Source: Acidimicrobiales bacterium
Lineage (GTDB): Bacteria > Actinomycetota > Acidimicrobiia > Acidimicrobiales > JACDCH01
Length of the DNA: 34,985 nt
Reading direction: 5' to 3'
Assembly (NCBI GenBank): GCA_035937605.1
Contig: DASZHU010000146.1
Coordinates: forward strand, 1-34,985
The position numbers and the translations under genes are program-made. The notes below the pieces were generated by a model. The model did no database searches, had not been told where the DNA came from, and saw nothing but the letters and a program-made list of their open reading frames with translations. Numbering within the stretch: position 1 is the first letter of the stretch; every line of letters begins with the position of its first letter. This document shows positions 323-19,141 of the stretch, piece by piece.

Positions 323-340
323 CCGCCTCGAGTCAGGCGG
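323..340. terminator. Short GC hairpin between convergent stop codons (CCGCCT-cgagtc-AGGCGG)
   Basis: A 6-bp inverted repeat at 323-328/335-340 lies between the TGA at 320-322 (+ gene) and the stop at 333-335 (- gene). There is no U-tract. Candidate bidirectional terminator only. Confidence 0.3.
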
Positions 341-1544
341 GCTCGTGCTTGCGGAGCTCCCGCCGCGCCACCGTCAGACGATGGACCTCATCGGGGCCGT
401 CGGCGAGTCGGAGTGTCCGGAGGTGGGCGTAGAGCGACGACAGCCCGAAGTCGTCGCCGATGCCGGCGGCGCCATGGGCCTGGATGGCGTGGTCGACGAT
501 GTCGAGGGCCATCTGCGGCACGGCCACCTTGATACCCGAGATCTCGGTGCGCGCCGCCTTGTTGCCCTCCTTGTCCATGAGCCACGCGGTGTAGAGGGTG
601 TACAGGCGGGATTGGTCGATGTTGATGCGCGCGTCGGCGATCCACGTCTGGATCACGCCCTGCTCGGCGAGCTGCTTGCCGAAGGCCGTGCGCGTCGTGA
701 CGCGCTGGCACAGCATGTCGAGGGCGCGCTCGGCCGCGCCGATCGTGCGCATGCAGTGATGGATCCGGCCGGGGCCCAAGCGCGCCTGCGCGATCGCGAA
801 CCCGCCGCCTTGCTCGCCGAGCAGGTTCGTCTTGGGCACGCGCACGTTCTCGAACAGCAACTCGCAGTGGCCTTCCACGTCCTGGTAGCCGAACACGGGG
901 AGCGATCGCACGTTGGTGACGCCCGGTGTGTCCATCGGCACGAGCACCATCGACTGCTGGAGATGGCGCGGACCGCTGGGGTCGGTCTTGCCCATGACGA
1001 TCAGGATCTTGCAGCGCCTGCTCGCCGCACCCGAGATCCACCACTTGCGACCGTTGATGATGTAGTCGTCGCCGTCGGATTCGATGCGACACTCGATGTT
1101 CGTCGCATCGGACGACGCCACCGCCGGCTCGGTCATCGCGAACGCCGATCGGATCTCGCCCTCGAGCAACGGATGCAGCCATTGCTCCTGCTGTTCGGGC
1201 GTGCCGAACATGGTCAGGATCTCCATGTTGCCGGTGTCGGGCGCCGCACAGTTCGTTCCCTCCGACGCGAGGCTCGACCTCCCCATCACCTCGGCGAGCG
1301 GCGCATAGTCGAGGTTGGAGAGCCCGTCGGTCCACTGCGTCTTGTGCGGGAGGAACAGGTTCCACAAACCGCGCCGCTTCGCCTCCGCCTTCAACTCCTC
1401 CATCACCGGCGGGTGGAAGTGCGGATCGCCGGACTCCTCCAACTGCGTCCCGTAGACCGGTTCGGCCGGATACACCTTCTCGTTCATGAAGGCGAGCAGG
1501 TCATCTCGCAGCCGTGACGCGGTATCCGACAGGGCGAAGTCCAT
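333..1544 (-). CDS. Acyl-CoA dehydrogenase (FadE2 / ACAD10-11-like)
   Basis: 403-aa ORF carrying the ACAD blocks [31 protein letters not shown] and [11 protein letters not shown]. The + strand ORF 345..1517 is its Arg/Ala-rich shadow. Confidence 0.9.
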
Positions 1545-1568
1545 GAGCCGGACACTACGTTGCTTTTC

Positions 1569-2261
1569 ATGTCGGTCTCATTCGAACGTGACGGTGCCGT
1601 AGCGGTCATCTCGGTCGACGACGGCAAGGCAAACGCGTACTCGCCCGACGTCCTGTCCGCGATGAGCGACGCGTTCGACAAGGCGCACGACGACGCCGTG
1701 GGCGCCGTGCTGTTGCAGGGCCGTCCCGGACGGTTCTCCGCTGGGTTCGACCTGTCGATCATGACCTCGAGCACCGATGCGATGCGCGACCTCGTCACGC
1801 AGGGCGCCGAGTTGTTGCTGAAGATCTTCACGCATCCCACGCCGGTGGTCACCGCGTGCACCGGTCACGCGTTGGCCGCCGGCGCGCTGGTGCTGCTCGC
1901 GAGTGACGTACGCGTCGGCGCGGAGGGTGAATTCAAGATCGGCCTCAACGAGGTGGCGATCGGCATGCCGCTGCCGATCTTCGCCGTGGAGTTCGCGCGC
2001 TATCGCATGCCGCCCTCCGCATTCGACAGCGCGCTGTTGGGCGAGGTGTTCGGCCCTGCCGACGCGGTGCGGGCCGGCTACCTCGACCGCGCGAGCACCG
2101 ACGTGCTCCGTGACGCGGCCGCGATCGCGCAGCGCCTGTCTGGGCTACGCCGCGGCGCCGTCGCCCGCACGAAGGAGCATGCCCGTGCCGCGCTCGCCCT
2201 GCGAATCACCGAGACGCTCTACGCCGACATGGCCACGCTGGCCGGGCCCACACCACCCTGA
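1569..2261 (+). CDS. Enoyl-CoA hydratase/isomerase (crotonase) family protein
   Basis: Contains [23 protein letters not shown] (oxyanion-hole block) and [23 protein letters not shown] 1569 is preferred over the TTG at 1560. It is divergent from the acyl-CoA dehydrogenase. Confidence 0.85.
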
Positions 2262-2307: not shown

Positions 2308-3786
2308 TCAGCTGACGTCCATGAGCATGCCTTCGCACGTGCGGATGAGCACACGCGAGGCATCGGCCGCTTCTCGGCTCGACAGCGGGTTCTCGGCGCG
2401 GCGCTGCCACCGGCCGATCGCGTTCTGGAGCGCGACTCGGATGTCGCCCGGCGTCGCGCCCGGATCGAGCCCGAGTCTCGTCGTCGGCGACGAACCCTCG
2501 GCTCCGAGCATCCGCTCCATCTCCTCGCACTCGGCGGGCTTCACACCCTTCACCACTCCCGCCCGGAGCGCGTTGAGGAGCCGCACCTCTGCAAACTCGT
2601 GCGCCCCGGCGGTGACACGCTCGAGCTCTGACGCAAGCTCGTCGGCGCCGGCAACGGGGTGATCGCGAACGACAGCCTCGAGCGCGAGCAGCGCGGACCG
2701 CGACTTCAGCACGTCGCGACGCGACGCGAACTGGGACAGGAGCACCTGCTTCAACTCCACAAGCCCACTGCGCAGCACGAGCTCGTTCGCCAGCTGGCTC
2801 GACGTCGTCACCGCACCCTGACGGATCAACGCCGCGGCGAGGCGCACGCCGAACAGCCCGAACCGATCGAGAAGGTGCTCGCGCTCCATCGAGGTCAGTG
2901 CGATCTGCGTCGGCGCTTGCACGAACCGATCGGTCGAGAGGAAGAGCCGATCGGCCTCGTCCTGTGGCGCGGTCGCGATCGTGTACAGCGCCTTGAACTC
3001 AGCCTCGCGCAGTGTCGAACCCGACTGCGCCAGGAGTCCGGCCACCGGCACCACGGTCTGGCAGAGGCGACGGACCTTGGCGTCGTGCTTGTAGCGCGTG
3101 GCGATGCGCGACGCGGACGCCATCGAGTCGAGTCGCCCCACGCCGATCTCGTCCGCCCGCGAGAGCACGGCGATCGCGTTCACCGGTGTTGCCTGCGCGA
3201 CCTCCTGGTCGTGGAACGCCTCCAGAAAGCCGATGTCGGTGGTGTGCAGGTGCCGCATCAGGTACAGCACCGCGTCGGCGGGAGTCACCTGGTCCTCGCC
3301 CGGGGTGAGGAACGCCTGGGCACGCGCCGAAACGTCGATCGACAGTGATGCGATGCCGGGTGTGTCGATCAGCGTGATCGCCCGCAACGACGACGACGGC
3401 CACTCAACCTCCAGCCGGTCGACCGTCTCGACCGGCGTGCCTTGCAGGTCGATGTCGATCGCGCCGGCATCACGCGAGAACGGCACCTGCCGGGGCTCGC
3501 CTTCCTTCGGGTGCATCATCACCCGGTACGTGATGCCGTCGCGGTACCACGTGACGATCTTCGAGCACTCGCCGGCGTCGGTCGGCGCCAGCTCTTCGCC
3601 GACAAGGGCGTTGAGCAGCGTCGACTTCCCCGCCTTCACCTTGCCCGCGATCGCGACACGGAGCGGCTCGTCGAGGCGCGCACGCTCGGCTTCGAGTTGC
3701 GCGCCCTGTGGCGTGTCGCGGTACACGCTGGTGGAGCGCGTCAGCAGGCCCCGCACCTCGTCGAGCAGCGTCGGGCGACGAGCCAC
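2308..3786 (-). CDS. Bacterial dynamin-like GTPase, IniC-like (492 aa)
   Basis: P-loop AIAGKVKAGKSTLLNALVG and G3 motif LIDTPGIAS, followed by a long helical stalk. No hydrophobic segment. Its GTG start shares one nucleotide with the upstream gene's TAG (TAGTG at 3786). Confidence 0.85.
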   Translation of the reverse strand: MARRPTLLDEVRGLLTRSTSVYRDTPQGAQLEAERARLDEPLRVAIAGKVKAGKSTLLNALVGEELAPTDAGECSKIVTWYRDGITYRVMMHPKEGEPRQVPFSRDAGAIDIDLQGTPVETVDRLEVEWPSSSLRAITLIDTPGIASLSIDVSARAQAFLTPGEDQVTPADAVLYLMRHLHTTDIGFLEAFHDQEVAQATPVNAIAVLSRADEIGVGRLDSMASASRIATRYKHDAKVRRLCQTVVPVAGLLAQSGSTLREAEFKALYTIATAPQDEADRLFLSTDRFVQAPTQIALTSMEREHLLDRFGLFGVRLAAALIRQGAVTTSSQLANELVLRSGLVELKQVLLSQFASRRDVLKSRSALLALEAVVRDHPVAGADELASELERVTAGAHEFAEVRLLNALRAGVVKGVKPAECEEMERMLGAEGSSPTTRLGLDPGATPGDIRVALQNAIGRWQRRAENPLSSREAADASRVLIRTCEGMLMDVS

Positions 3787-5639
3787 TACGACGCCTCGCT
3801 CGCGAGATCAGGTGCGAGCGACAACACCTCGTCGCGCAAACCTCGGATCCGCGCGATCTCCGCTTCGACGTCGGGCAGGCGCTTCGCCCGAGTCTTGGCG
3901 TCGGTGTCGACCGCGACCTGCGCCTTGTGCAGGGCTTCGGTGGTCGACCGATAGAGCTCCTCGGCCCGCGTCGTGAACTGATCTCGCAGCTGCCGCTGGA
4001 TACGACGCACTGTGTCACGTGCGTCCTTGCCGACCTGGAAGGCCAGCTCGTCGGTGTACTTGCGGTGCGCGTTCTTGGCTTGCGCCCGTCGTTGCGCGAG
4101 CGCGCGGTTCTTCTCGTCGCGGTAGGCCTTCCCACCGAAGATGATGCCGGCGACGACGCCGACGGGGTTGATCAACGCGAGACCGACCATCTGGCCAAAC
4201 ATGCCGAACATGAGCGCGCCGCCGTACGACGATCGCAGCGTGCTCATGCCGGTGCTCAAACCGTCGCCCTCCTGCAGCTCCACGTCGGCCGACGCCTCGA
4301 CCGCCTTCAACAGCTCGGAGGGGTTGGGGACGTCGAGCTGCACCGCGATCTCATTGCCGTCGATCGAGAACAGCTCGGACACCCGCGCCGCGATCTCGCC
4401 GGCCCGTCGCTGCATCATCGTGTAGTTGGCGACGACGTGGTCCGCCGCTTGTCGGTAGAGCCACGGCTCGAACTCCTCCCACGAGTCCGCCGGGTCGCTC
4501 TGGTCGAGTGCATCATCCGCGTCCTTGGTGAGCTGCCGGAGCCGCGAGCGAAGGTCGTGGTCGACGTCGGTCAGGAGGTCCATGAACCCGTCGTTCAGCG
4601 TGACCTGCCAACGCGCCGCCGTGCTGCGGAGCCGATCACCCTGGTCGGTGGCGATCTCGAGCTGGTGGACCAATTCCGATGCACGGTTCGGGTCGGCGAG
4701 CGCGCTGCGTTCCGACGCGAACTGGCTCTCGAGCTGCGTGACGACCGACAGCATCTCGGCCGCGGCGGTGCGCACCACGAGGCTCTCGCGCTTGCCCACG
4801 ATCTCGACGCCGAGGTACTGCTCGAGCGGGCCGAACCCCGACTCGGCATCGAGTGCGGCGTCGCTCGTCTCTTGCGACAGACGCCGGAGCGCGGACGACA
4901 GTTCGAGCACGGGAACCTCGACGTTTGCCGCGGCGAGATGACCCTGGTCGAGATCGACGATCTTGCGCCACGAGGGATAGAAGTCGATCTTCGTGATCAC
5001 GCAGCCGACGTTCGGGCACAACGACCGGGCGGTCTGCAGGAAGTCGAGCTCAGGTCGCGTGTACTCCTGCGACGCGTCGCTGACGAACAGCACGGCGTCG
5101 GCCATCGGCAGCGCGCCGATGGTGATCGCCGAGTGCGTCGATCCGAGACCTCCGACTCCCGGCGTGTCGACGAGGACGAGCCCCGGCTCGAGGAGGGGTG
5201 AGGGCACGCCGACATCGACGGACTCGATCCGCCTCCGGTTGTCCGGATTGGCCGCTTCGGTCACGTACTGCGCGACCTCGTCGAACGGCACCTGCTCGAT
5301 CGTCGACACCGAGCCCTCGGGTGCGTCGTCCGGCGGGCTGACGGTCGCAGTCGCGTTCGCCGCGAGCGCGTGATGCAGCTTGGTCGGCACGGCGGTAGCG
5401 ACGTCGTCGTCGACCGGGCACACGTCGAACCCCAGCAGGGCGTTGATCAGCGAGCTTTTGCCCTGTTTGAACTCGCCGACCACGAGCACGTGGAAGAGCG
5501 GATCGACGAGCCGAGCGCGGGTCTGGGCGAGGCGCTCCGACAGATCGGCGCGCTGGTAGGCGTCTGCCGCAGACGCGCAGATCTCGAGGATCGAGGTCGC
5601 CGCCTCGCGTGCCGGTGCCCCACGCTCCACCTGACTCAT
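3786..5639 (-). CDS. Bacterial dynamin-like GTPase, IniA-like (617 aa) with a membrane-insertion paddle
   Basis: P-loop VVGEFKQGKSSLINALLG and G3 motif LVDTPGVGG. A hydrophobic hairpin GGALMFGMFGQMVGLALINPVGVVAGIIFGG sits near the C-terminal third. Size and gene order match the IniA-then-IniC arrangement. Confidence 0.85.
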   Translation of the reverse strand: MSQVERGAPAREAATSILEICASAADAYQRADLSERLAQTRARLVDPLFHVLVVGEFKQGKSSLINALLGFDVCPVDDDVATAVPTKLHHALAANATATVSPPDDAPEGSVSTIEQVPFDEVAQYVTEAANPDNRRRIESVDVGVPSPLLEPGLVLVDTPGVGGLGSTHSAITIGALPMADAVLFVSDASQEYTRPELDFLQTARSLCPNVGCVITKIDFYPSWRKIVDLDQGHLAAANVEVPVLELSSALRRLSQETSDAALDAESGFGPLEQYLGVEIVGKRESLVVRTAAAEMLSVVTQLESQFASERSALADPNRASELVHQLEIATDQGDRLRSTAARWQVTLNDGFMDLLTDVDHDLRSRLRQLTKDADDALDQSDPADSWEEFEPWLYRQAADHVVANYTMMQRRAGEIAARVSELFSIDGNEIAVQLDVPNPSELLKAVEASADVELQEGDGLSTGMSTLRSSYGGALMFGMFGQMVGLALINPVGVVAGIIFGGKAYRDEKNRALAQRRAQAKNAHRKYTDELAFQVGKDARDTVRRIQRQLRDQFTTRAEELYRSTTEALHKAQVAVDTDAKTRAKRLPDVEAEIARIRGLRDEVLSLAPDLASEAS

Positions 5640-5662
5640 GTGAACCGCATCCTAAGGTTGCC

Positions 5663-7552
5663 GTGGTGGCGTGGGTGTTGGGTGTCGATCTGGGCACGAC
5701 CTTCACGGCCGCGGCCGTGTGGCGAGACGGGCGCGCCGAAATCATCACGCTGGGCACGCACACCGCGGCCATCCCGTCGGTCGTCTTCTACCGCGACGAC
5801 GGCAGCACGATCTCCGGTGACGCTGCGGAGCATCGTTCGGTCACCGAACCGGAGCGGGTCGCGCGCGAGTTCAAGCGTCGCGTCGGCGACACCACACCGC
5901 TCCTCGTCGGTGGCGCGCCTCGCTCGCCGGAGGCGCTCATGGCCGTGCTCTTGCGCGACGTCGTGCGCGACTCGGTCAGCCAGGAGGGGTCGCGCCCCGA
6001 CCGCATCGCCATCACCCATCCGGCGAGCTGGGGTCCGTACAAGCTCGACGTACTGCGCCAAGCCATCCGGCTCGCGGAGCTCGGCACCGAGACCGAGCTC
6101 GTTCCCGAGCCGGTCGCGGCGGCGGTGCACTACGCGACGCTGCAACGGGTGGAGATGCATGACTTCGTGGCCGTGTACGACCTTGGTGGCGGCACGTTCG
6201 ACGCCGCCGTCGTGCGGCGCACCGCGGACGGCTTCGAGCTCTACGGCCAACCGGAAGGAATCGAACGTTTGGGGGGCATCGATGTCGATGCGGCCGTGTT
6301 CGGTCACGTCCAGACGTCGCTCGGTCTCAAGCTCGACACCCTCGACCGTGACGATCCTGCGGTGGTGTCGGCGTTCGCGCGGCTGCGGGCCGACTGCGTC
6401 ACCGCGAAGGAGACGCTGTCGGCCGACACCGACGCGGTCATTCCGGTGATCCTTCCCGGTCTGTCGACCGAGGTGCGCATCACACGCGGCGAGCTCGAGT
6501 CGATGATCCGGCCGGCGATCACCGACACGCTCTCCGCGCTGCGCAGGGCGATCGCGTCGGGCGGACTCGTGCCAGAGCACGTGGAGCGGGTCCTGCTCGT
6601 CGGTGGGTCGTCGCGCATCCCACTGGTGGCCGAGATGGTCACGGCCGACCTCGGCCGGCCCATCGCGCTCGACACCCATCCAAAGCACGCGGTTGCACTC
6701 GGCGCGGCCACGATCGCCTCGCCCAAACCCGTTCCCGTCACGCCGGCGTCGCCGCCCCCGCCTCCGATCGTCCCGGTGGCCGCTCCCGTCGCGCCGGCGG
6801 GCCCACCACCGATGCCGCCGGCTGCTCCGGTTCCGGTCGTCGCGCCGGCACCTGGTCCACCCGGTCCACCCGGGCCACCCCGTCCCGCGACGCGGAAACG
6901 ATCTCCGGCGCTCGTCCCCGCGATCGTGGTCGTGGCGCTCGCCCTGCTCGTCGGCCTGTTCGCGATCACGAGATCGAGCGGCAACAACAAGAACGCATCC
7001 AGCTCGACCGCGACTTCCGGCACGTCGACGACCGACAGCTCCTCGAGCGACAGTTCGTCGACGAGCAGCTCCTCTACGGACAGCTCGTCGAGCTCGGACT
7101 TCCCGCTGTCCTCCGCCTCGTTCGGTGACACCGATGTGGAGGCGACGGCGTCGAATCTCATCCGCGTCTTCTTCACGTTCGACGACTCCAACGTCGACAC
7201 CCTCGCAGCTCGCACCCGCCCGCTGTCGACGGGCAAGTTCCTCGAACAGCTGAACGGCTTCAGCTCGGACTTCGTCAGCTCGGCGCAGAGCCAGCACGTG
7301 CACTCGAGCGGCAATGTCACCGCAGTGAAGTCGTTGGGTTTCGACGGCAGTCATGGCGAGGCTCTGGTGACAGCCGACGTGACGGTGACGAGCGACAACA
7401 GTGGCTCGCAGCTGAATACGTTCAAGCTGATCATGGCGCTCGACTCGGTCGCCGGTCACCTGCTCGTGTCCGACCTGGCCGAGTGCCCCGGATCGGCCGG
7501 CTTCACCGACTCGAGCTCCACGGCGCTGTCGAGCTTCTCGGGCTCTTGTTGA
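5663..7552 (+). CDS. Membrane-anchored Hsp70-family ATPase: nucleotide-binding domain only, then Pro-rich linker, TM helix, Ser-rich tract and Mam/SnoaL-like ectodomain
   Basis: Actin-fold motifs VDLGTTFT, YDLGGGTFD and LVGGSSRIP are present, but there is no DnaK substrate-binding domain. The Pro-rich tract is at about 6719-6890, the TM (ALVPAIVVVALALLVGLFAI) at about 6909-6970 and the Ser-rich tract at about 6990-7110. The C-terminal domain ends ...LVTADVTVTSDNSGSQLNTFKLIMALDSVAGHLLVSDL. The start is uncertain: GTG 5663 has AAGG 6 nt upstream, and ATG 5609 would overlap the divergent dynamin gene. Confidence 0.85.
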   Translation: MVAWVLGVDLGTTFTAAAVWRDGRAEIITLGTHTAAIPSVVFYRDDGSTISGDAAEHRSVTEPERVAREFKRRVGDTTPLLVGGAPRSPEALMAVLLRDVVRDSVSQEGSRPDRIAITHPASWGPYKLDVLRQAIRLAELGTETELVPEPVAAAVHYATLQRVEMHDFVAVYDLGGGTFDAAVVRRTADGFELYGQPEGIERLGGIDVDAAVFGHVQTSLGLKLDTLDRDDPAVVSAFARLRADCVTAKETLSADTDAVIPVILPGLSTEVRITRGELESMIRPAITDTLSALRRAIASGGLVPEHVERVLLVGGSSRIPLVAEMVTADLGRPIALDTHPKHAVALGAATIASPKPVPVTPASPPPPPIVPVAAPVAPAGPPPMPPAAPVPVVAPAPGPPGPPGPPRPATRKRSPALVPAIVVVALALLVGLFAITRSSGNNKNASSSTATSGTSTTDSSSSDSSSTSSSSTDSSSSSDFPLSSASFGDTDVEATASNLIRVFFTFDDSNVDTLAARTRPLSTGKFLEQLNGFSSDFVSSAQSQHVHSSGNVTAVKSLGFDGSHGEALVTADVTVTSDNSGSQLNTFKLIMALDSVAGHLLVSDLAECPGSAGFTDSSSTALSSFSGSC

Positions 7553-7581: not shown

Positions 7582-10242
7582 ATGACCGTGACCAAGCCCC
7601 TCGTCATCGTCGAGTCGCCCGCCAAGGCCCGCACCATCGCGGGCTTCCTGGGGCGCGACTTCACGGTGATGGCCTCGATGGGCCACGTCCGTGACCTGCC
7701 CAGCAAGGGTCTGAGCGTCGACACGGACAACGGGTTCAAAGTGGATTACGAGGTCCATGCGAGCAAGAAGAACGTCATCAAGGAGCTGCGCGACGCCCTG
7801 AAGGGGGCCGACGAGCTCTACCTCGCCACCGACGAAGACCGCGAGGGAGAGGCGATCTCGTGGCACCTGCTCGAGGTGCTCAAGCCCAAGGTGCCCGTCA
7901 AGCGGATGGTCTTTCACGAGATCACGCAGCATGCCATCGAGGACGCCGTTGCCAACTGGAGAGACGTTAACTACGGGCTGGTCGACGCGCAGGAGAGCCG
8001 GCGCATCGTCGACCGCCTGTTCGGCTACCCGGTGTCCGAGGTCGTCTGGCGCAAGATCCGCACTGGTCTGTCGGCGGGACGGGTGCAGTCGCCGGCCGTG
8101 CGCCTCGTCGTCGAGCGGGAGCGCGAGCGCATGGCGTTCGTCGCGGCCGGCTACTGGGATCTCGCCGCTCAGTTCCCGACCGAGCCCGAGTTCACGGCCG
8201 GTCTCGTCGCGGTCGACGACGCGAAGGTCGCCGAGGGCAAGGACTTCGATTCTCTCGGACAGAAGAAGAAGGACGACGTGCTGGTGCTCGACGAGTCCGC
8301 CGCTCGCGGTCTCGCCGAACGACTCGACCGCGCCACCTTCACCGTCGGAAGCGTCGACACCAAGCCGTACACCTCGCGGCCGAAGCCACCCTTCATCACG
8401 TCGACGTTGCAGCAAGTCGGGGGAAGCCGCCTTCGGATGAGCGCGCAGCAGGTCATGCGCGTCGCGCAGGGTCTGTACGAGCGCGGCTACATCACGTACA
8501 TGCGCACCGACTCCACGACCTTGTCGGAGACCGCGTTGACCGCGGCGCGCCAACAGATCCGCGAGCTCTGGGGTGGCGAATACGTGCCCGACAAGCCGCG
8601 CTCGTACGCGAGCAAGTCGAAGAACGCGCAGGAGGCACACGAGGCGATCCGTCCCGCAGGCGATTCGTTCCGCACGCCCGACCAGCTGCGCACCGAGTTG
8701 AGCGGCGACGACCTCCGCCTGTACGAGCTGGTCTGGCAACGCACGATGGCCTCGCAGATGCCCGATGCGCGCGGGTCGACCGTTACTGCTCGCATCAACG
8801 CGCGCACGTCGGCTGGCGAGCTCACCGCCTGGACCGCGTCCGGCCGCACGATCACGTTTCCCGGGTATCTCGCCGCCTACGGCTTCGGTGGTGACGACGC
8901 CGAGGCCGACGGTGACACGGCGGCCAAGCTGCCCGAGCTCGCCGAAGGCCTCGAGCTTCCCTTCCCGGTCATCGAGGCGCTGGGCCACAGCACACAACCG
9001 CCGGCTCGTTACACGGAGGCCACGCTCGTGCGGGCACTGGAGGAGAAGGGCATCGGCCGTCCGTCCACGTACGCGTCGATCATGACGACGATCCAGGATC
9101 GCGGGTACGTGTGGAAGCGCGGGCAGGCGTTGGTGCCGACGCCCGACGCGTTCGCGGTCGTCAACCTTCTCGAGCAGCACTTCACCGACCTCGTCGACTA
9201 CGACTTCACCGCCCGCATGGAAGACGACCTCGACGAGATCGCCGGCGGTCACGAGCAACGCGAGCCGTGGCTCGGGAAGTTCTGGTTCGGCAACGGCACC
9301 CCTGGCGTCAAGTCGTTGTGCGCGCAGGCCCTCGAAAAGGCCGATCCCGTTACGATCAACGCGATACCGATCGGGATGGACGAGAGCGGCGAGCTGGTCG
9401 TTGTCCGCAACGGCAAGTACGGGCCCTATGTCAAGCGTGGTGACGACACTGCGTCGCTGCCGGACGACGTCGCCCTCGACGAGTTCACGATCGACCGCGC
9501 CATTGAGTTGCTCAATGCGCCGAAGGGCGACGATCCGATCGGAGCCGACCCGGCATCGGGCCTACCCGTGTATGCGAAGAACGGACGCTTCGGTCCCTAC
9601 GTGCAACTCGGTGACAGCGAGACGCTGCCCGACAAGCAGAAGCCGAAGATGGAGTCGTTGTTGAGCTCGATGTCGCTCACCGACATCACTCTTGACCAGG
9701 CACTGATGCTGTTGTCGCTGCCGCGCACCGTCGGCGTCGACGACGACGGCGTGGAGATCACCGCCCAGAACGGTCGCTACGGGCCGTACATCAAGAAGGG
9801 CGACGAAACCCGCAGCCTCGAGTCCGAGGACTCGATCTTCACCGTCACGCTCGATGACGCAAAGGCGCTGCTCGCGCAGCCCAAGCAGTTCGGTCGGCGT
9901 CGAGCCGCGCCGGCACCGCCGCTGCGCGAGCTGGGCAACGATCCCGCGTCCGGCCAGCCGGTCGTGGTGAAAGACGGTCGGTTCGGCCCGTACGTCACCG
10001 ACGGCGAGGTGAACGCGTCGCTGCGCAAGGGCGACACGGTCGACGGCATCACGATCGAGCGGGCGGCGGAGCTGCTGCAGATCCGGCGCGAGACGGCGCC
10101 ACGCAAGGCCAAGCGCGCGCCGGCGAAGAAGAAGGCGCCCGCGAAGAAGAAGGCGGCGACCAAGAAGGCCGCCCCGAAGAAGAAGGCGCCCGCGACAGAG
10201 GCCAGGGAGTCACAGTCGGGTGAATCGCCGTCAGTAACCTGA
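7582..10242 (+). CDS. topA: DNA topoisomerase I, actinobacterial type (no Zn fingers; GxxGPY repeats and Lys-rich tail)
   Basis: Toprim block LVIVESPAKARTI, the YITYMRTDS active-site Tyr block, and four NG(K/R)(Y/F)GPY repeats. The tail reads KKAPAKKKAATKKAAPKKKAPA. Confidence 0.97.
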   Translation: MTVTKPLVIVESPAKARTIAGFLGRDFTVMASMGHVRDLPSKGLSVDTDNGFKVDYEVHASKKNVIKELRDALKGADELYLATDEDREGEAISWHLLEVLKPKVPVKRMVFHEITQHAIEDAVANWRDVNYGLVDAQESRRIVDRLFGYPVSEVVWRKIRTGLSAGRVQSPAVRLVVERERERMAFVAAGYWDLAAQFPTEPEFTAGLVAVDDAKVAEGKDFDSLGQKKKDDVLVLDESAARGLAERLDRATFTVGSVDTKPYTSRPKPPFITSTLQQVGGSRLRMSAQQVMRVAQGLYERGYITYMRTDSTTLSETALTAARQQIRELWGGEYVPDKPRSYASKSKNAQEAHEAIRPAGDSFRTPDQLRTELSGDDLRLYELVWQRTMASQMPDARGSTVTARINARTSAGELTAWTASGRTITFPGYLAAYGFGGDDAEADGDTAAKLPELAEGLELPFPVIEALGHSTQPPARYTEATLVRALEEKGIGRPSTYASIMTTIQDRGYVWKRGQALVPTPDAFAVVNLLEQHFTDLVDYDFTARMEDDLDEIAGGHEQREPWLGKFWFGNGTPGVKSLCAQALEKADPVTINAIPIGMDESGELVVVRNGKYGPYVKRGDDTASLPDDVALDEFTIDRAIELLNAPKGDDPIGADPASGLPVYAKNGRFGPYVQLGDSETLPDKQKPKMESLLSSMSLTDITLDQALMLLSLPRTVGVDDDGVEITAQNGRYGPYIKKGDETRSLESEDSIFTVTLDDAKALLAQPKQFGRRRAAPAPPLRELGNDPASGQPVVVKDGRFGPYVTDGEVNASLRKGDTVDGITIERAAELLQIRRETAPRKAKRAPAKKKAPAKKKAATKKAAPKKKAPATEARESQSGESPSVT

Positions 10243-10248
10243 TCGGTC

Positions 10249-11718
10249 GTGGCAGAAGCGGCCTCTGAGCGGCACGAGGTCGAACCGACCGAGCCCGACC
10301 ACCCGGTCGTGGCCCTGCCGTTGCTCATCGACGAGGCCGTCGGCGCGGCCGAACCGGTCGCGCTGCACGTGCGGTTGTTCGGGAGTCACGCCTTCTTCCG
10401 ACTATGGATCGCTCAGGTGGTGTCCGCGCTCGGTGACTGGCTCGGCTTCCTGGCCATCACGATCCTCGCCGCGTCGCTCGGGAGCGGGACCGGCGGCACG
10501 GCCGTCGGTCTCGTGATGTCCGCCCGGATCATTCCCGGCTTCTTCCTCGCACCGGTGGCCGGTGTGATGATCGACCGCTGGGATCGCAAAAAGGTGATGG
10601 TCGTGTGCGACCTGGGTCGCGGTGCTGTGATCGCGTCGTTGCCGTTCGTGCACACGGTCACGGGACTCGTCATCGCGTCGCTCGTGCTCGAGGTGGGCAC
10701 GCTGTGCTGGTCGCCGGCGAAGGAAGCGTCGGTGCCCAACATCGTGCCCACCGATCGGCTCACGTCGGCCAACTCGTTGTCGCTGGCCGCGGCCTACGGC
10801 ACGTTCCCGATCGCGGCCGGGTTCTTCGCGCTCCTCGCACAAGCGGCGAAGGCGCTTGGTGGGATCGACGCGTTGAACTTCTTCAAGACTGATCAGACCG
10901 CGCTCGCGTTCTACGTCGACTGCGCGACGTTCCTGTTGTCCGCGTTGCTCATCTCCACGCTCGCGCTGCCCGACGCGGCGCGGCGTTCGAAGCACAAGGT
11001 CGACGGGGACGGCAAGCGCATCAACCTCACGCAGACGTTCCAGGAGCTGAAGGAGGGTTGGCAGTTCATCTTCGTCAACCCGGTGGTGCGGTCGGTGAAC
11101 CTCGGCCTCGCCACCGGGCTGATCGGGGGCGGGATGGTCGTGCCCCTGGGCTCGATCTTCTCCCGCGACATCCTCGGTGCCGGTGCCGCCGGCTACGGCG
11201 TTTTCATCACCGCGCTCGGGTTCGGAGTCGCGGTCGGCGTGCTCCTCCTGTCAGTCACGCAGAAGTGGCTGCCGAAGGCCAAGGCATTCGAGGCCGCAAT
11301 TTTCGTCGCCGGCGGATCGCTCATCTTCGCGGCGTCGATGTCCACGCTCACGCTTGCGATCATTGGCGTGTTCGTGCTCGGCATCTGTGGCGGCGCCGTG
11401 TACGTGGTCGGCTTCACGTTGCTGCACGAGAACGTGAACGACGCGCTCCGCGGCCGCATCTTCAGTGCCCTGTACACGATCGTGCGGCTGTGTCTGCTGA
11501 TCGCGTTCGCGCTCGGACCGTTCCTGGCCGAGTTCCTCGACCGAGTGTCGAACCGATTCTTCACCAACCGGACCATCACGATCGTCGGCCGCGACCTGTT
11601 CGTGCCCGGCGAGCGGCTGACGCTGTGGTTCGCCGGCGGCATCATCATCATCGCCGGCTGCATCGTGTTCTGGTCGCTGCGGGCGGGTGAGCGCGAGCGA
11701 AGCCGCGCGACGGTCTGA
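10249..11718 (+). CDS. MFS transporter
   Basis: 489-aa polytopic protein with multiple hydrophobic helices and an MFS loop motif (MIDRWDRKKV). Its stop overlaps the tmk start (TGATG at 11716-11720). The N-terminal extent is uncertain (GTG 10249). Confidence 0.8.
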   Translation: MAEAASERHEVEPTEPDHPVVALPLLIDEAVGAAEPVALHVRLFGSHAFFRLWIAQVVSALGDWLGFLAITILAASLGSGTGGTAVGLVMSARIIPGFFLAPVAGVMIDRWDRKKVMVVCDLGRGAVIASLPFVHTVTGLVIASLVLEVGTLCWSPAKEASVPNIVPTDRLTSANSLSLAAAYGTFPIAAGFFALLAQAAKALGGIDALNFFKTDQTALAFYVDCATFLLSALLISTLALPDAARRSKHKVDGDGKRINLTQTFQELKEGWQFIFVNPVVRSVNLGLATGLIGGGMVVPLGSIFSRDILGAGAAGYGVFITALGFGVAVGVLLLSVTQKWLPKAKAFEAAIFVAGGSLIFAASMSTLTLAIIGVFVLGICGGAVYVVGFTLLHENVNDALRGRIFSALYTIVRLCLLIAFALGPFLAEFLDRVSNRFFTNRTITIVGRDLFVPGERLTLWFAGGIIIIAGCIVFWSLRAGERERSRATV

Positions 11719-12299
11719 TGCTCATCGCCTTCGAAGGCGGAGAAGGCTCGGGGAAGTCGACGCAGGCCCGGTTGCTCGCCGAGCGCCTCGGTGCCGTGCT
11801 CACGCGCGAGCCCGGCGCGACGGCTGCCGGTGCCCGCATCCGGGCGCTGCTGCTCGATCCCGACGCGGACATCGACCGGCGGACGGAGGCGCTGCTGATG
11901 GCGGCCGACCGCGCCCAGCACCTGGCCGAGGTCGTCGGCCCTGCGTTGGCCAAGGGCGAGGACGTGGTGACCGACCGTTACCTGTACTCGTCGCTCGCGT
12001 ACCAGTCCTTCGGCCGCGGCCTCGACCGTCAGAAGGTGCGCGCTCTGTCCGCGTTCGCCGGCGCACCGGAGGCCGACCTCGTGATCCTCATCTCCGTCTC
12101 GCCCGAGGTGCGGGCGCAACGGCGCAAGCCATTGCCGGACCGTATCGAGGCGTCCGGCGATCGGTTCCACGAGCGCGTCGAAGCGGGGTTCCGGGCCATG
12201 GCCGAGGCGGATCCTCACCGTTGGACCGTGATCGACGGCGACGGCAGCGTCGAAGAGGTCGCCGCTCGAGTGTGGGCCGCGGTGCACGCGCGTCCGTGA
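11718..12299 (+). CDS. tmk: dTMP (thymidylate) kinase
   Basis: MLIAFEGGEGSGKSTQARLLAERL P-loop, DRY..SSLAYQ block and a lid region. Confidence 0.93.
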   Translation: MLIAFEGGEGSGKSTQARLLAERLGAVLTREPGATAAGARIRALLLDPDADIDRRTEALLMAADRAQHLAEVVGPALAKGEDVVTDRYLYSSLAYQSFGRGLDRQKVRALSAFAGAPEADLVILISVSPEVRAQRRKPLPDRIEASGDRFHERVEAGFRAMAEADPHRWTVIDGDGSVEEVAARVWAAVHARP

Positions 12300-12348: not shown

Positions 12349-13419
12349 TTGAGGGCCATCGCGCTCTCTGTCGATCCCTGGGCCGGCGTCATCGGCCAGC
12401 AGCACGCCGTTGCCGCGCTGCAAGCGGCCGCGGCGCGGCCGATCCACGCCTACCTGCTCGTCGGGCCGCGCGGGAGCGGAAAGCGTCAGCTCGCTCGCTC
12501 GTTCGCGGCGTCGCTGCTGGCCGCCACTGCGACGTCGGATCCCGACCGGACGGCGAGGCTGGCACTCGCCGGCCGCCATCCCGACCTGCACGAGTTCGAG
12601 CGGGCGGGCCCGTACATCACGGTCGAGCAGGCCGACTCGATCATCGCCGAATCGAGTCGAACCGGCGTCGAGAGCGACCGCAAGGTGCTCGTGCTGGTCG
12701 ACTTCCACCTCGTGCAGCCGGCCGTGGAAGGCAAGCTGCTCAAGAGCATCGAAGAGCCACCTGGCGACACCGTCTTCGTGGTGCTGGCGGAGTCGGTGCC
12801 GGCCCTGCTCGAGCCGATCGCCTCACGCTGCGTGCGCATCGACGTCGATCCGCTCCCCGAGTCGGTCGTCGCCGACGCGCTCGTCGCTTCCGGCGTCGAC
12901 GACGGGATCGCCGCCGAGGTCGCGTCCGCCGCCGGTGGCGATCTCGATCGCGCTCGATTGCTGGCCACGGATCCACGGTTCTCGTTGCGGCGCACGTTGT
13001 GGCGTTCGATCCCGGAGCAGCTGGACGACACCGGTGCGGCAGTGGTGCGGTTGGTGGGCGAGGTGCGGGCCACGATCGACGACGCGGCGGAACCGGTGCG
13101 GGCGCGTCATGCGCAGGAGCTCGTCGAGCTCGAGGAGCGAATCGAGCGGTACGGCGAACGGGGATCGGGAAAGACGCAACTCGTCGACCGCCAACGGCGC
13201 GAGCTGCGCCGGCATCGCACGGACGAGATCAAGTTCGGATTGGCCACGATGGCGGGTCGTTACCGCGACGAACTGCACGACAACTTGCGGCTCGCGCTCG
13301 CCGGACTCGACGCGATCGCGGACACACACGAGTCGATGGAACGGAACCCGAACGAGACGCTGTTGCTGCACGCGCTCCTGCTGCGGCTGCCTTCCGTGGC
13401 GGTGCTCGCTCGGTCATGA
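12349..13419 (+). CDS. holB: DNA polymerase III delta-prime subunit
   Basis: GQQHAVAAL....HAYLLVGPRGSGKRQLARSFAASLL (AAA+ clamp-loader Walker A) and SRC motif IASRCVRI. It follows tmk. TTG start at 12349. Confidence 0.85.
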   Translation: MRAIALSVDPWAGVIGQQHAVAALQAAAARPIHAYLLVGPRGSGKRQLARSFAASLLAATATSDPDRTARLALAGRHPDLHEFERAGPYITVEQADSIIAESSRTGVESDRKVLVLVDFHLVQPAVEGKLLKSIEEPPGDTVFVVLAESVPALLEPIASRCVRIDVDPLPESVVADALVASGVDDGIAAEVASAAGGDLDRARLLATDPRFSLRRTLWRSIPEQLDDTGAAVVRLVGEVRATIDDAAEPVRARHAQELVELEERIERYGERGSGKTQLVDRQRRELRRHRTDEIKFGLATMAGRYRDELHDNLRLALAGLDAIADTHESMERNPNETLLLHALLLRLPSVAVLARS

Positions 13420-13791: not shown

Positions 13792-14109
13792 GGGCAGGAG
13801 GTTCCGCAGCCGGCGTCGACGCCTTCGTGACTTGCATCGGTCACATCAATCGCCTCGCTCGGGATCCGGTCGGCGCTCGAAGCGCCGCCGGGATTGTGTG
13901 AGGACCGAGACCGGCCGAGCGCTCTCAAGGGGGATGCTGGCCGCGATCGCAGCGCGGTCGGGGTTCGACGAGGTGATGAGAAGTGTACGAAGGGAGTGCG
14001 ACAGTGAAGCGGGGATCCGCGTGACGGCTTCAGTTGACACGTCGAGCGGTCATCGCGAGCACCTTGTCCCAGTTGCGTCGCGTCCGTCAGGACGACGATC
14101 GGGCAGGAT

Positions 14110-14141
14110 GCTACTCATCAGTCTGTAGACGTATCAGTAGC
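14110..14141. promoter_or_regulatory. Candidate operator: inverted GCTACTCATCAGT / ACGTATCAGTAGC half-sites upstream of the XRE gene
   Basis: Arms at 14110-14122 and 14129-14141 match 10/13 as an inverted repeat. They lie 22-53 nt upstream of ATG 14163. The same GCTACTNAT core recurs at 14436-14451. Confidence 0.45.
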
Positions 14142-14162
14142 GACTTCGCTTCGCTCTAGGCG

Positions 14163-14387
14163 ATGAACGATGAACTCCTGCGACGAGTCGGCGCGAACCT
14201 TCGTCGGATGCGTCTGCAACAGGGTCTGTCCCAAGAGGAGTTCGCGGAGATGCTCGACGTGCATCGCACGTACGTCGGTGGACTCGAGCGGGGCGAACGC
14301 AACCTGACGCTTCGCTCGCTGGAGCGCCTCGCCGCGCGGCTCGATCTGGATCCGCTGGTTCTCCTGCGGCGTCCGCGCAACTCGTAG
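14163..14387 (+). CDS. XRE-family helix-turn-helix transcriptional regulator (74 aa)
   Basis: Classic Cro/C1 HTH layout: LRRMRLQQGLSQEEFAEMLDVHRTYVGGLERGERNLTLRSLERLAARL. Confidence 0.9.
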   Translation: MNDELLRRVGANLRRMRLQQGLSQEEFAEMLDVHRTYVGGLERGERNLTLRSLERLAARLDLDPLVLLRRPRNS

Positions 14388-14435
14388 CGGCACGACGACC
14401 CTCAGCGAGGTTCGGTCCGAGAGCTTTCCCTTCAC

Positions 14436-14451
14436 GCTACTGATAAGTAGC
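14436..14451. promoter_or_regulatory. Perfect-arm palindrome GCTACT-GATA-AGTAGC, second candidate XRE operator
   Basis: Read directly from the sequence. It sits 49 nt after the XRE stop and about 190 nt upstream of the surface-protein ATG at 14645. Confidence 0.4.
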
Positions 14452-14644
14452 ATGAAGTCGCGCAGGTGGCGGTGCGGGGATGCGGGGAAGGCGAGGAAGC
14501 AGCATGACGACAGGAGGTAGTACGGCGGAGCCGCTCGACGCGGCCGCCCTCGACTCCCGGGCGCGTACGCATCCGCGAGTCGCATTCCTCCTCGGTGCGT
14601 CGTTGCGCGCTTCTCGGAGTTCTGACCATGGAGGGAGCAGGAAG

Positions 14645-15148
14645 ATGCGAACACGTAGGTGGGTGGCGTTGATCGCATGCAGCGTGCTCGCCGTTGCGGC
14701 GCTGGCGCTCGTGGCGCCCGGGGCGCGGGCCCAGACATATGGTGGGCGTGGCACGCTCGCACCGAGCAGCTCGAACGTTGCCACCGGTGGGAGCCTCACC
14801 CTCAGCGGCGACGGGTTCGCGCCGAACTCCACGATCACGATCGAGATCCACACCGACCCGATCTCGCTGGGCACGGCGGTGGCGGACTCCACGGGTCACT
14901 TCGAGAAGCAGGTTACGCTGCCCATCGCCGTTGCCGCCGGACAGCACACCGTCACTGCGGTCGGCACGGCCCCCTGACGGCTCGAGCCTCGTGCTCTCGA
15001 CGACGATCATGGTCGGCGGCCAGGGACACTCAGCCGAACAGGGACGGACAGCACGCGTCCTGTCGTCGTCGCGCTCGTGCTCATCGCTGTCGGCGCGACG
15101 CTCGTCTCTGGTGTTCGGCGCCGCCGGCGTCGCGCCGTGGGCGTCTGA
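14645..15148 (+). pseudogene. Secreted Ig-like surface protein whose C-terminal sorting signal is cut off by an in-frame TGA (14975-14977)
   Basis: GGAGGGAGCAGGAAG RBS precedes ATG 14645. Signal peptide MRTRRWVALIACSVLAVAALALVAPGARA-Q is followed by a beta-rich domain ending ...HTVTAVGTAP, then TGA. The same frame continues RLEPRALDDDHGRRPGTLSRTGTDSTRPVVVALVLIAVGATLVSGVRRRRRRAVGV, then TGA (15146-15148). That is LxxTG + TM + Arg tail, a sortase-type sorting signal. Confidence 0.6.
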
Positions 15149-15172
15149 CGATCGAGCCGGCGTCACAGCCGC

Positions 15173-15790
15173 ATGACAGACGGACGTGGTCGTTGGCAAC
15201 ACCTCGCCCGGGCGCCCGACAGATGGATCCCCTCGCCGCGGGTCATCGGGTGGTGCGCGCTCGGCTTGGTGGTCACCGGCACGGTGGCTCTGCCCTTGCA
15301 GGCCACGACATCGCCCGCGCCGTCGCTGCGACTCGCTGGCCTCGTCACCAGGGTCGATGGCGCGCACGTACAGGTACTGATGCGAGCCACTGCCGCGCGC
15401 GCCACGTTCGAAGGCACCATGTCGTGGGCTCTCGCGCCGCACGGTTCGGCAGATTGCTGGGCACTGGATTCGCGATCGGGTTCGTCGTCGCGCTCGATCA
15501 GACCCTACGAACGCCGCATCCACGGAGTCTCGTCACCGCGGTGGTCTGTCTCGTCGGGACCTTGGCCACGTCCCATCTGATCGCTGCGTTCGCGGCCGCG
15601 TCTGCAGTCGTGCTCGTCGTGCTGCATCTCGTCCTACGCGTCGAGACGATGTATCGCCGCCGCCGCCGGCACAGCTTCGTGTGGCTCGGCCTCGCCGTCC
15701 TGCCGTTCGCACCGCTGTACCTGACGCTGGCTCGCACGGTCCTCGTCAGCGTGCACGGTCGTGACGCGTCGCGTCGTTCACCCACCGACT
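15173..15790 (+). pseudogene. Probable frameshifted or degraded polytopic membrane-protein gene
   Basis: A TM-like stretch (VIGWCALGLVVTGTVALPL) lies in the frame of ORF 15173..15580. Further helices (LLGTGFAIGFVVAL, LVTAVVCLVGTLATSHLIAAFAAASAVVLVVLHLVL, FVWLGLAVLPFAPLYLTLA) appear only in the frame of ORF 14659..15987, from about 15445. No single frame is intact. A short real gene starting at GTG 15424 cannot be excluded. Confidence 0.3.
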
Positions 15791-15892
15791 GGTGGAATGA
15801 GGTGCAGTTCATCCTCCGCTACGACCCTGGCCTGTGGGCTCCACGCCCTGGGCGGGCACGCACTTGGCGTGGTCGGGTCGGGCACACGTCTG

Positions 15893-16051
15893 GCCACCGG
15901 CCGGCTCTCGTGGGGCCACACCTCACTGGTGCATCGCTTCGTCGACGCCGTGCTCGACGGCACGCCGCCCCCGGTATCGATCGATGACGCGCTCGAGGTG
16001 GTCGCGTTGACCGACGGCATACTCGCCGCGCTGACCCATGTAGGACGGTGA
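15893..16051 (+). pseudogene. 3' remnant resembling the C-terminus of a Gfo/Idh/MocA-type oxidoreductase
   Basis: The tail of ORF 15761..16051 reads HRFVDAVLDGTPPPVSIDDALEVVALTDGILAAL, which resembles the conserved C-terminal block FVDAI..G..PPVS.EDGL.ALE...AI of that family. No Rossmann N-terminal domain is present upstream. Confidence 0.35.
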
Positions 16052-16087
16052 GGCCCGGGAGGACCGGCTGCTAGCTTTCGTCCTTCC

Positions 16088-16163
16088 GCCCGGGTAGCTC
16101 AGACGGCAGAGCAGCTCACTCGTAATGAGCAGGTCAGGAGTTCGATTCTCCTCTCGGGCTCCA
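16088..16163 (+). tRNA. tRNA-Thr, anticodon CGT, CCA encoded
   Basis: Hand-folded cloverleaf. Acceptor GCCCGGG/CTCGGGC (one G-U pair), D arm GCTC/GAGC, anticodon arm GCTCA-CTCGTAA-TGAGC (anticodon CGT at 16121-16123), variable loop AGGTC, T arm AGGAG-TTCGATT-CTCCT, discriminator T, CCA at 16161-16163. Confidence 0.93.
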
Positions 16164-19033: not shown

Positions 19034-19141
19034 CGGTGCGATGGTCGGGGCCGTAGCCTCGCGACTGGTGGGACCGCGGCACGCGCCTGACGGGTGAAGT
19101 GTTGCGGTAGCTCGGGCTCGGGCGTGGGGAAGGAGCGTGCG

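Follow-up and report, generated by a model that had tools for sequence, protein, structure and literature searches.

The window analysed here is a whole contig of 34,985 bp from an Acidimicrobiales metagenome-assembled genome, with a G+C content of ~68%. It carries a minus-strand pair of genes for ini-type dynamin-like GTPases and a divergently transcribed gene for a membrane-anchored, Hsp70-like ATPase. The iniA-like gene (3786–5639) encodes 617 residues and the iniC-like gene (2308–3786) 492. The two are coupled by a TAGTG overlap, read directly on the minus strand as ...GCG TCG TAG TG GCT..., in which the stop codon TAG and the start codon GTG share one G at 3786. On the other side of iniA, a spacer of 23 nt (5640–5662) separates its ATG (complement of 5637–5639) from the GTG at 5663, the first in frame, with which the Hsp70-like gene begins; this plus-strand gene encodes 629 residues and ends at 7552. 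Public annotation begins this gene at the next GTG (5666), giving 628 residues. The overlap, the sizes of the two dynamin genes and the gap of about 23 nt between divergent starts are thus as a first-pass annotation of the sequence had described them. A 23-nt spacer is too short for two promoters, so each promoter would have to lie inside the opposite gene or the mRNAs would be leaderless. No sigma-70 consensus was matched around the divergent starts, and a promoter scan of them yielded nothing usable.

Sequence comparison identifies the 617-residue product as a full-length IniA homologue. It aligns with Mycobacterium smegmatis IniA (PDB 6j72_A) at E=7.2e-106, residues 19–609 on 9–596, an alignment that includes the neck and stalk; the next-best PDB matches are Nostoc BDLP (2e-12) and Campylobacter DLP1/2. 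The Pfam Dynamin_N profile scores 85.7 bits against a gathering cut-off of 27, and the G1 (GEFKQGKS, residue 55), G3 (DTPG, 158) and G4 (TKID, 216) motifs are in place. A hydrophobic, proline-kinked segment at residues ~472–505 (MVGLALINPVGVVAGIIFG), with a Kyte–Doolittle value of 2.08 at 484–502, is by hydropathy alone a candidate membrane-insertion paddle near the stalk tip.

The 492-residue protein is best assigned, from its matches and its gene order, as the IniC-type partner, a more divergent dynamin-family GTPase. It scores 40.9 bits with Dynamin_N, above the same cut-off of 27, and its PDB sequence matches are to BDLP (2j68, E=3.8e-9) and IniA (6e-7). Its motifs are G1 GKVKAGKS (48), G3 DTPG (141) and a G4-like RAD (210). 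We found no hydrophobic segment along its length, the best Kyte–Doolittle window being 1.19, in agreement with the earlier claim that the first dynamin of the pair has a paddle and the second has none. For comparison, one genome per species was scanned with an IniA-type alignment, which gave at least 587 relatives, and 80 loci were fetched; these 80 (L numbers below) are the basis of all locus counts. The iniC-like gene directly follows the iniA-like gene in essentially all of them, and its product is 53–87% identical to 30 syntenic IniC-like proteins. The proposal that the pair is of the IniA/IniC type thus holds up, both in the full-length match to 6J72 (E=7e-106) and in the iniB- and iniR-type genes that relatives carry.

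The divergent gene encodes a protein built from five parts. Its first 352 residues (5663–6718) form an Hsp70-type nucleotide-binding domain (NBD). The Pfam HSP70 match (E=3e-48, 164.9 bits) stops at profile position 372 of 599, and NCBIfam DnaK and HscA models score 155–163 bits against cut-offs of 709–823. By the end of the profile match, alignment with DnaK, and composition and predicted disorder, neither an interdomain linker nor a β-sandwich substrate-binding domain nor a helical lid follows the NBD. When aligned to DnaK (2v7y), the domain is 26–29% identical to DnaK NBDs and keeps the ATPase residues D9, G11–T13, K71, E149, D173–D180 and G314–R318. It has the phosphate-1, K70-equivalent, E171-equivalent, phosphate-2 and adenosine motifs, each of them invariant in 17 diverse homologues, and the NBD is predicted to be catalytically intact. 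Since there is no substrate-binding domain, the protein is not a classical chaperone, and any client contact must use the NBD or the proline-rich linker that follows it.

The fold of the NBD points the same way. Foldseek searches with its AlphaFold2 (AF2) model returned Hsp70 NBDs for all of the top 50 PDB matches, with TM-scores normalised to target length (TMt) of 0.7–0.78 for target chains that consist of an NBD alone; MreB, FtsA and sugar kinases were absent from these 50. Homologues carry the Joint Genome Institute (JGI) label 'actin-like ATPase', and we rejected an MreB/actin-like identity since MreB_Mbl reaches 26.9 bits, under its cut-off of 27, versus 164.9 for HSP70.

Beyond the NBD lies a cytoplasmic tether of 64 residues (353–416; 6719–6910), 45% proline by composition and predicted to be disordered, followed by a single transmembrane (TM) helix (417–435; 6911–6967) with a hydropathy of 3.0. 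The AF2 model places the helix at 418–436, and it is preceded by RKR. The predicted topology has the N terminus inside and the C terminus outside. A Ser/Thr-rich extracytoplasmic spacer (436–484; 6968–7114) is 65% Ser/Thr, contains a tandem repeat at 7029–7091 and has a predicted local distance difference test score (pLDDT) below 50. It leads into a folded extracytoplasmic domain (485–610; 7115–7552 with the stop codon). This architecture, an Hsp70 that carries a TM anchor and an ectodomain in place of a substrate-binding domain, had been recognized in the first-pass annotation and is seen across the family: 107 of the 109 full-length homologues have an NBD, a proline-rich linker, exactly one TM helix and ~177 residues beyond it, the linkers having a median length of 102 residues and 27% proline. 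The NBD fold and ATPase motifs are those of canonical Hsp70s (DnaK, HscA) and their NBD-only relatives; unlike canonical Hsp70s, the window protein is membrane-anchored, has an ectodomain and has no conserved GrpE or DnaJ neighbour. Three further profile matches were set aside. A PADLOC match to PD-T4-6 (E=4e-4, residues 345–476) falls on the low-complexity proline-rich linker and was judged spurious, and those to Pfam DUF5862 and 'New_glue' are below cut-off and lie on hydrophobic or low-complexity segments.

The ectodomain core is modelled by AF2 with a pLDDT of ~90 as an NTF2-like fold of the VirB8/DotI type. Foldseek matches it to DotI (3wz4, E=2e-5, TMt 0.73) and to the periplasmic domains of PrgL and VirB8; the intermembrane-space (IMS) domains of ARC6 and PARC6 also match the fold (E=2e-4 to 2e-3). 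Two cysteines (residue 608 and the C-terminal 629) are invariant in the window's clade. This type of ectodomain occurs in 14 of 107 homologues, all within that Acidimicrobiales clade. A further 83 of the 107 have an uncharacterised Cys-rich outer domain for which there is no Pfam model, and the outer parts of the remainder are BON, fibronectin-III or repeat domains or Pro/Thr/Gly-rich tails. Within this clade (homologues P0002–P0014), the ectodomain core is 23–50% identical where the NBD is 81–86% identical. The ectodomain is lineage-specific, fast-evolving and exchangeable. Whole ectodomain types have been exchanged among lineages, a pattern for which diversifying selection and relaxed constraint are both possible explanations. 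It had been suggested that the ectodomain senses an envelope signal. Its evolution fits that idea poorly, and an anchoring, positioning or protein-contact module in the wall seems more likely than a sensor of one common ligand, because VirB8-type domains mediate protein contacts.

We found the Hsp70-like gene to be a frequent neighbour of iniA and iniC. Of the 80 loci, 50 have a gene for the Hsp70-like NBD no more than 10 kb from iniA/iniC, usually 0.5–3.8 kb away; of the 30 others, 23 sit on contigs whose length does not allow a decision and 7 have full flanks and lack it. With the count restricted to loci that have at least 8 kb on both sides (full-flank loci, n=39), 32 carry the gene. Written as H for the Hsp70-like gene, B for an iniB-type gene and R for iniR, the patterns among these 39 are HBR (27), HB- (4), H-R (1), -B- (4) and --- (3). 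By taxon, the gene is present in 16/16 full-flank loci of Pseudonocardiales, 3/3 of Micromonosporales, 8/9 of unclassified Actinomycetota, 1/1 of Nitriliruptoria and 4/10 of Acidimicrobiia, and hence in 28/29 outside Acidimicrobiia. The association was also found in the reverse direction: of nine Hsp70-like homologues picked solely for their long contigs, eight adjoin dynamin genes.

The linkage is kept while gene order and orientation vary. In the 50 linked loci the Hsp70-like gene lies upstream and divergent in 35, downstream on the same strand in 14 and convergent in 1. In 28 loci it and the first iniB gene diverge from a common region of 50–300 bp. With A and C standing for iniA and iniC, the commonest layout is H< B> (B>) A> C> R<. 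Micromonosporales, Kineosporiales and some Acidimicrobiia have R> B> A> C> x< H>, two loci (L002 and L090) have C> H> with a gap of 35–66 nt, and one (L087) has H< A> with a gap of 68 nt and no iniB. Linkage of varied order and orientation is seen in Acidimicrobiia, Pseudonocardiales, Micromonosporales, Kineosporiales and Nitriliruptoria. A linkage that outlasts rearrangement is a classical signature of functional coupling. Adjacency confined to this genome or its close relatives, which would have spoken against a partnership, is therefore not what is seen; the genes are linked across at least five actinobacterial orders. The head-to-head geometry emphasized by the first-pass annotation stands at the level of the operon, given the 35 divergent loci among 50. 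The 23-nt abutment itself is explained by loss of iniB, as described below, and elsewhere iniB lies in between or the Hsp70-like gene lies downstream of iniC. We are highly confident of the conserved linkage and of the identity of its parts.

Co-divergence of the proteins adds little to this. Correlations of pairwise identity over 30 genomes are 0.965 for IniA–IniC, 0.906 for IniA with the Hsp70-like protein and 0.913 for IniC with it, high values that vertical inheritance is enough to account for and that therefore have no discriminating power. Five Pseudonocardia loci (L038, L039, L040, L051 and L083) have, in the usual position, an Hsp70-like gene of much more diverged sequence whose NBD is 36–41% identical to that of the window, versus 50–55% in other Pseudonocardia. 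In Pseudonocardiales (L028–L066), the Hsp70-like gene is followed, in its own orientation, by genes for conserved small membrane proteins: one of 90–160 residues with a weak 'Putative sensor' match and one of ~274 residues resembling drug/metabolite transporters (DMT-like). This arrangement suggests a lineage-specific operon of the Hsp70-like gene and the small membrane proteins.

The commonest neighbours in the related loci are proteins with an IniB N-terminal domain (NF038175, 42–48 bits, cut-off 40). In 49 loci there is also an AAA+/LuxR protein, matching the IniR model over its whole length (NF038181, E=2e-82). Judged by these matches, the related loci are true ini loci, usually of the form Hsp70-like/iniB(x1–3)/iniA/iniC/iniR. 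The hidden Markov model (HMM) of the IniB N terminus gives 111 matches in 61 related loci and, run over all six frames of the 35-kb window, none (best E=2.6), as had been noted from the letters alone. Likewise no member of the IniR cluster is encoded in the 35-kb window; iniR could lie elsewhere in the genome. The proposal that the two dynamin genes and the Hsp70-like gene form a self-contained three-gene module does not survive this comparison, in which the common form includes one to three iniB genes and iniR.

A conserved cis-element accompanies the iniB-type genes. It consists of GATCCCCTA, 20–30 nt and then (A/T)TCCCCGATGG, and is found at a nearly constant distance of 80–102 nt ahead of the start codons of iniB-type genes, second and third copies included, in taxa that range from Acidimicrobiia to Pseudonocardiales, Egibacteraceae and Kineosporia. 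Examples are at L017:7520–7600, L039:7930–7990, L029:7040–7100 and L031:1470–1540. Of 26 intergenic regions, 15 contain the 9-mer of the element, where shuffled sequences gave no more than 5, and 28 of 79 loci show the strict pattern. It is probably an IniR-dependent promoter element. The window holds no copy of it, in keeping with the loss of iniR.

How the window reached its present form can be read from its relatives. The 'Acidobacteria' metagenome-assembled genome L017 has the order tmk< MFS< topA< H< B> B> A> C> R<, where MFS is a major facilitator superfamily transporter gene. The window has the same order minus B and R, which brings H against iniA; loss of iniB thus accounts for the 23-nt abutment of the Hsp70-like gene and iniA. 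Sister Acidimicrobiales (L008, L010, L011 and L014) have topA< B> B> B> A> C>, H having been lost instead, and within this block of topA/[Hsp70-like]/[iniB]n/iniA/iniC the window and L001 have kept the Hsp70-like gene and have no iniB. These reciprocal losses across Acidimicrobiia imply that H and iniB are each dispensable in that class. What the window holds is a pared-down form of the actinobacterial ini (isoniazid-inducible) envelope and membrane-remodelling locus, from which iniB, iniR and the promoter element have been lost.

The iniB-type genes have features of their own. Outside mycobacteria, IniB-type proteins have an IniB N-terminal domain of ~50 residues followed by acidic, repetitive tails rich in Asp, Asn, Ser, Thr and Gly rather than in Gly and Ala. 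Their genes occur in one to three tandem copies, two of them nearly identical in L029; examples are at L017:7646–9773, L010:6147–9863, L029:7156–9844 and L052:8663–9907. The N-terminal domain also weakly matches a leader model for ribosomally synthesized and post-translationally modified peptides (RiPPs) related to nitrile hydratase leader peptides (NHLP; TIGR04509, E ~1e-4).

Published descriptions provide mycobacterial counterparts. Boot et al. (2017) mention, in one sentence, a "dnaK-like gene" beside M. smegmatis iniR (PMC5760070), and our literature searches for a bacterial dynamin–Hsp70 pairing found nothing beyond that sentence. The pairing, for which the earlier annotation knew of no description, is therefore not entirely without precedent. 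MSMEG_0692, listed as the Rv0312 orthologue with one transmembrane helix and ATP binding, was recovered along with MviN and CwsA among the cell-envelope interactors of FhaA (PMC11898655). It adjoins MSMEG_0691, the M. smegmatis IniR orthologue, and lies near iniA (MSMEG_0695). One study lists Rv0312, annotated as a Pro/Thr-rich protein with an 'Hsp70 family protein domain', among the genes of the MtrA regulon (PMC11126594), and iniA is a predicted MtrA target (PMC2945938). These descriptions (an Hsp70 or ATP-binding domain, a Pro/Thr-rich region and one TM helix) fit the window protein, and the family appears to be that of Rv0312/MSMEG_0692, a match drawn from published descriptions and not from sequence comparison. 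Pseudonocardiales members of the family have Pro/Thr/Gly-rich tails; in the window protein a folded NTF2-like ectodomain takes the place of a low-complexity tail.

The comparison extends to the ini genes themselves. Mycobacterial IniA carries out GTP-dependent membrane fission, IniA and IniC are both required for vesicle release, and iniBAC answers cell-wall damage via IniR (PMC6715688, PMC10240201, PMC5760070). The mycobacterial locus is characterised by its inducibility with free trehalose or with inhibitors of cell-wall synthesis. Like the mycobacterial iniBAC–iniR systems (Boot et al. 2017; Wang et al. 2019; Gupta et al. 2023), the window has a full-length IniA and an overlapping iniC start; with M. 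smegmatis it shares the absence of iniB and the presence of a dnaK-like gene. It differs from mycobacterial iniBAC in lacking iniB, iniR and the iniB-type promoter motif and in having the Hsp70-like gene abut iniA, and its host, unlike mycobacteria, is a member of the Acidimicrobiales without a mycolate envelope.

The wider neighbourhood consists of housekeeping and metabolic genes, assigned from Pfam and NCBIfam, with no mobile or defence-island genes near the locus. On the iniC side are genes for an acyl-CoA dehydrogenase (333–1544, minus strand) and an enoyl-CoA hydratase (1560–2261, plus strand). Beyond the Hsp70-like gene, and on its strand, follow topA for DNA topoisomerase I (7582–10242), an MFS transporter gene (10249–11718), tmk (11718–12299) and a holB-like gene (12349–13419). 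This topA–MFS–tmk–holB context marks the locus as core chromosome, and the topA synteny is common to the window and L001, L007, L010, L011, L014 and L017. The Hsp70-like gene ends 29 nt before topA, and a scan of this gap found no convincing terminator, so that the two are probably co-transcribed.

Four other features of the window were noted. A tandem repeat of period 18/33 at 10117–10195 encodes a Lys/Ala/Pro-rich tail at the C terminus of TopA. A stretch of ~2.3 kb (13800–16090) shows a weak G+C signal at third codon positions, and its open reading frames (ORFs) are all short or overlapping; one of them (14480–14977, plus strand) has a signal-peptide-like N terminus. The stretch ends at a tRNA-Thr(CGT) gene (16088–16163), and the AT skew flips sign sharply near 16 kb. 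Finally, an ORF of 596 residues (19094–20884, plus strand) has a good coding signal and no Pfam match at E<=1e-4.

Taken as a whole, we consider it probable, with moderate confidence, that the window is a reduced ini locus whose Hsp70-like protein is an accessory acting with the dynamins. The translationally coupled iniA–iniC operon would supply a membrane-inserting dynamin-like GTPase and a soluble partner. Together these would drive GTP-dependent fission or repair at the inner face of the membrane, as mycobacterial IniA does. The Hsp70-like protein would be a dedicated, membrane-resident accessory of the pair, possibly positioned by contacts of its ectodomain in the wall. Its long flexible tether could give the ATPase domain reach over the inner face of the membrane, into which IniA inserts, and the ATP cycle of the NBD may recruit, organise or recycle the dynamin assembly or the associated IniB-type proteins. 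Across Actinomycetota, the distribution of homologues points to the Hsp70-like family as an ancestral, widely conserved neighbour of iniB, iniA, iniC and iniR. For the more specific proposition that the Hsp70-like protein and the dynamin pair are direct functional partners, we judge the chances to be about even.

Several observations weigh against the accessory role. The linkage is not universal, since 7 of the 39 full-flank loci lack the Hsp70-like gene, among them the Acidimicrobiales loci L008, L010, L011 and L014, which have the topA–ini synteny. It is weakest in the window's own class, the 4 of 10 full-flank Acidimicrobiia loci, and in L007, whose IniA is 80% identical to that of the window, the 10 kb upstream are free of an Hsp70-like gene. 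For one homologue, P0018, the nearest 8 kb contain no dynamin gene, and in M. tuberculosis Rv0312 lies, by literature description, ~30 genes from iniBAC. The 29-nt gap to topA without a terminator means that the Hsp70-like gene may be expressed here with housekeeping genes and not as a stress module. Moreover, a signal sensed by the family as a whole is unlikely, given ectodomains that differ from lineage to lineage.

Eukaryotes offer analogies to such a partnership. In plastid division, ARC6, with its J-like domain, TM helix and NTF2-like intermembrane domain, positions the dynamin ARC5/DRP5B, and in endocytosis Hsc70 and auxilin act alongside dynamin. ARC6 resembles the window protein in being bitopic, with a domain of the Hsp70 system on one side, an NTF2-like domain on the other and a place in a dynamin pathway. 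It differs in having a J-like domain and not an NBD, and the fold match is a generic NTF2/VirB8 one; the likeness is an analogy, with no homology claimed. In a stronger form of the partnership, the membrane-anchored Rv0312-type Hsp70 ATPase would be the missing regulatory subunit of IniA/IniC, its wall-facing ectodomain marking damaged or remodelled envelope and its ATPase loading or stripping the dynamin polymer. We put this forward tentatively and regard it as rather unlikely.

A rival that we hold to be just as doubtful, and which survives best, makes the Hsp70-like protein an independent factor of envelope biogenesis or stress, for example in the network of FhaA and Ser/Thr kinases at poles and septa, which has its neighbourhood and perhaps its regulation in common with the ini genes and does not act on dynamins. 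It gains from the recovery of MSMEG_0692 with FhaA, MviN and CwsA rather than with IniA or IniC (PMC11898655), and from the locus number of Rv0312, by which it is unlinked to iniBAC in M. tuberculosis. The seven full-flank ini loci without an Hsp70-like gene and the one homologue without dynamin neighbours fit it too, and the promoter motif before iniB points to iniB and not to the Hsp70-like gene. Such independence is nevertheless hard to square with a linkage kept across at least three gene orders and five taxonomic orders, which is difficult to explain without selection for co-inheritance or co-expression. It is equally at odds with L090 and L002, where the Hsp70-like gene follows iniC directly on the same strand after 35–66 nt.

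An anti-phage dynamin system of the Eleos type (LeoA/LeoBC), in which the variable ectodomain would sense phage at the surface or serve as a decoy, is improbable. Eleos and B. subtilis DynA, which is reported to contribute to phage resistance (PMC12998192), resemble the window in having paired dynamin-like GTPases at the membrane. PADLOC does match the IniA-like protein to LeoBC (E=6e-21) and LeoA (1e-16), and the IniC-like protein to LeoA (2e-10). The IniA match is far stronger (E=7e-106), however, and the Leo matches reflect the common dynamin fold. The divergence of the ectodomain relative to the NBD and the swapping of ectodomain types are patterns typical of arms races, yet IniA, IniC and the Hsp70-like NBD diverge in step over 30 genomes (r ~0.9), as fits vertical inheritance and not horizontal spread. 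The locus sits in the conserved core synteny of topA–tmk–holB with no mobile or defence-island genes nearby, and iniR and iniB, both linked to cell-wall stress, are found in relatives. The window differs from Eleos and DynA in a pair much nearer to IniA and in its core-chromosome setting; no Hsp70-like partner is described for either of them.

Chance or housekeeping adjacency, in which the Hsp70-like gene belongs with topA, the MFS gene, tmk and holB and the dynamins are merely adjacent, is largely refuted and very improbable. The 29-nt spacing to topA without a terminator and the topA synteny common to relatives would suit it. Outside Acidimicrobiia, though, the Hsp70-like gene stays with the ini genes and topA is not in the neighbourhood, and sister genomes have topA beside iniB–iniA–iniC without an Hsp70-like gene; topA being kept beside ini in these sisters, the Hsp70-like gene is not part of a fixed topA operon. 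Least likely of all is a 'conflict system' of the kind described by Kaur, Burroughs, Iyer and Aravind (2020), in which DO-GTPase pairs and GAP1-N2 occur with HSP70, GrpE and sometimes NBD-only HSP70 (PMC7159879): the theme of a paralogous GTPase pair with an Hsp70 domain lacking the peptide-binding domain, spread mainly in actinobacteria, is alike, but we dropped the reading on the family definition given there, since the GTPases here are of the Dynamin_N/IniA family and not DO-GTPases, and neither the window nor the conserved neighbours include GAP1, GrpE, DnaJ-FNIII or effector genes.

No bacterial dynamins in a pathogen lineage have been studied as closely as IniA and IniC. In M. tuberculosis they mediate membrane fission and the release of extracellular vesicles, and their induction is a hallmark response to isoniazid and ethambutol. 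The ini locus and the dnaK-like gene by M. smegmatis iniR were already known; the window's third gene belongs to a widespread, little-studied family of membrane-anchored Hsp70 ATPases that travels with iniA and iniC. Kept next to the ini genes through repeated rearrangement, this ATPase is a concrete candidate partner for bacterial dynamins. By published description it has tractable orthologues in MSMEG_0692 of M. smegmatis and Rv0312 of M. tuberculosis, both essentially unstudied, and the window itself, with two dynamins and the ATPase and without iniB or iniR, offers a minimal natural system for reconstitution. If the partnership is real, Hsp70 biology would extend to NBD-only membrane proteins with swappable ectodomains. 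Should the ATPase prove to be a regulatory subunit of IniA/IniC, it would be a prokaryotic counterpart of the eukaryotic Hsc70–dynamin and ARC6–DRP5B partnerships.

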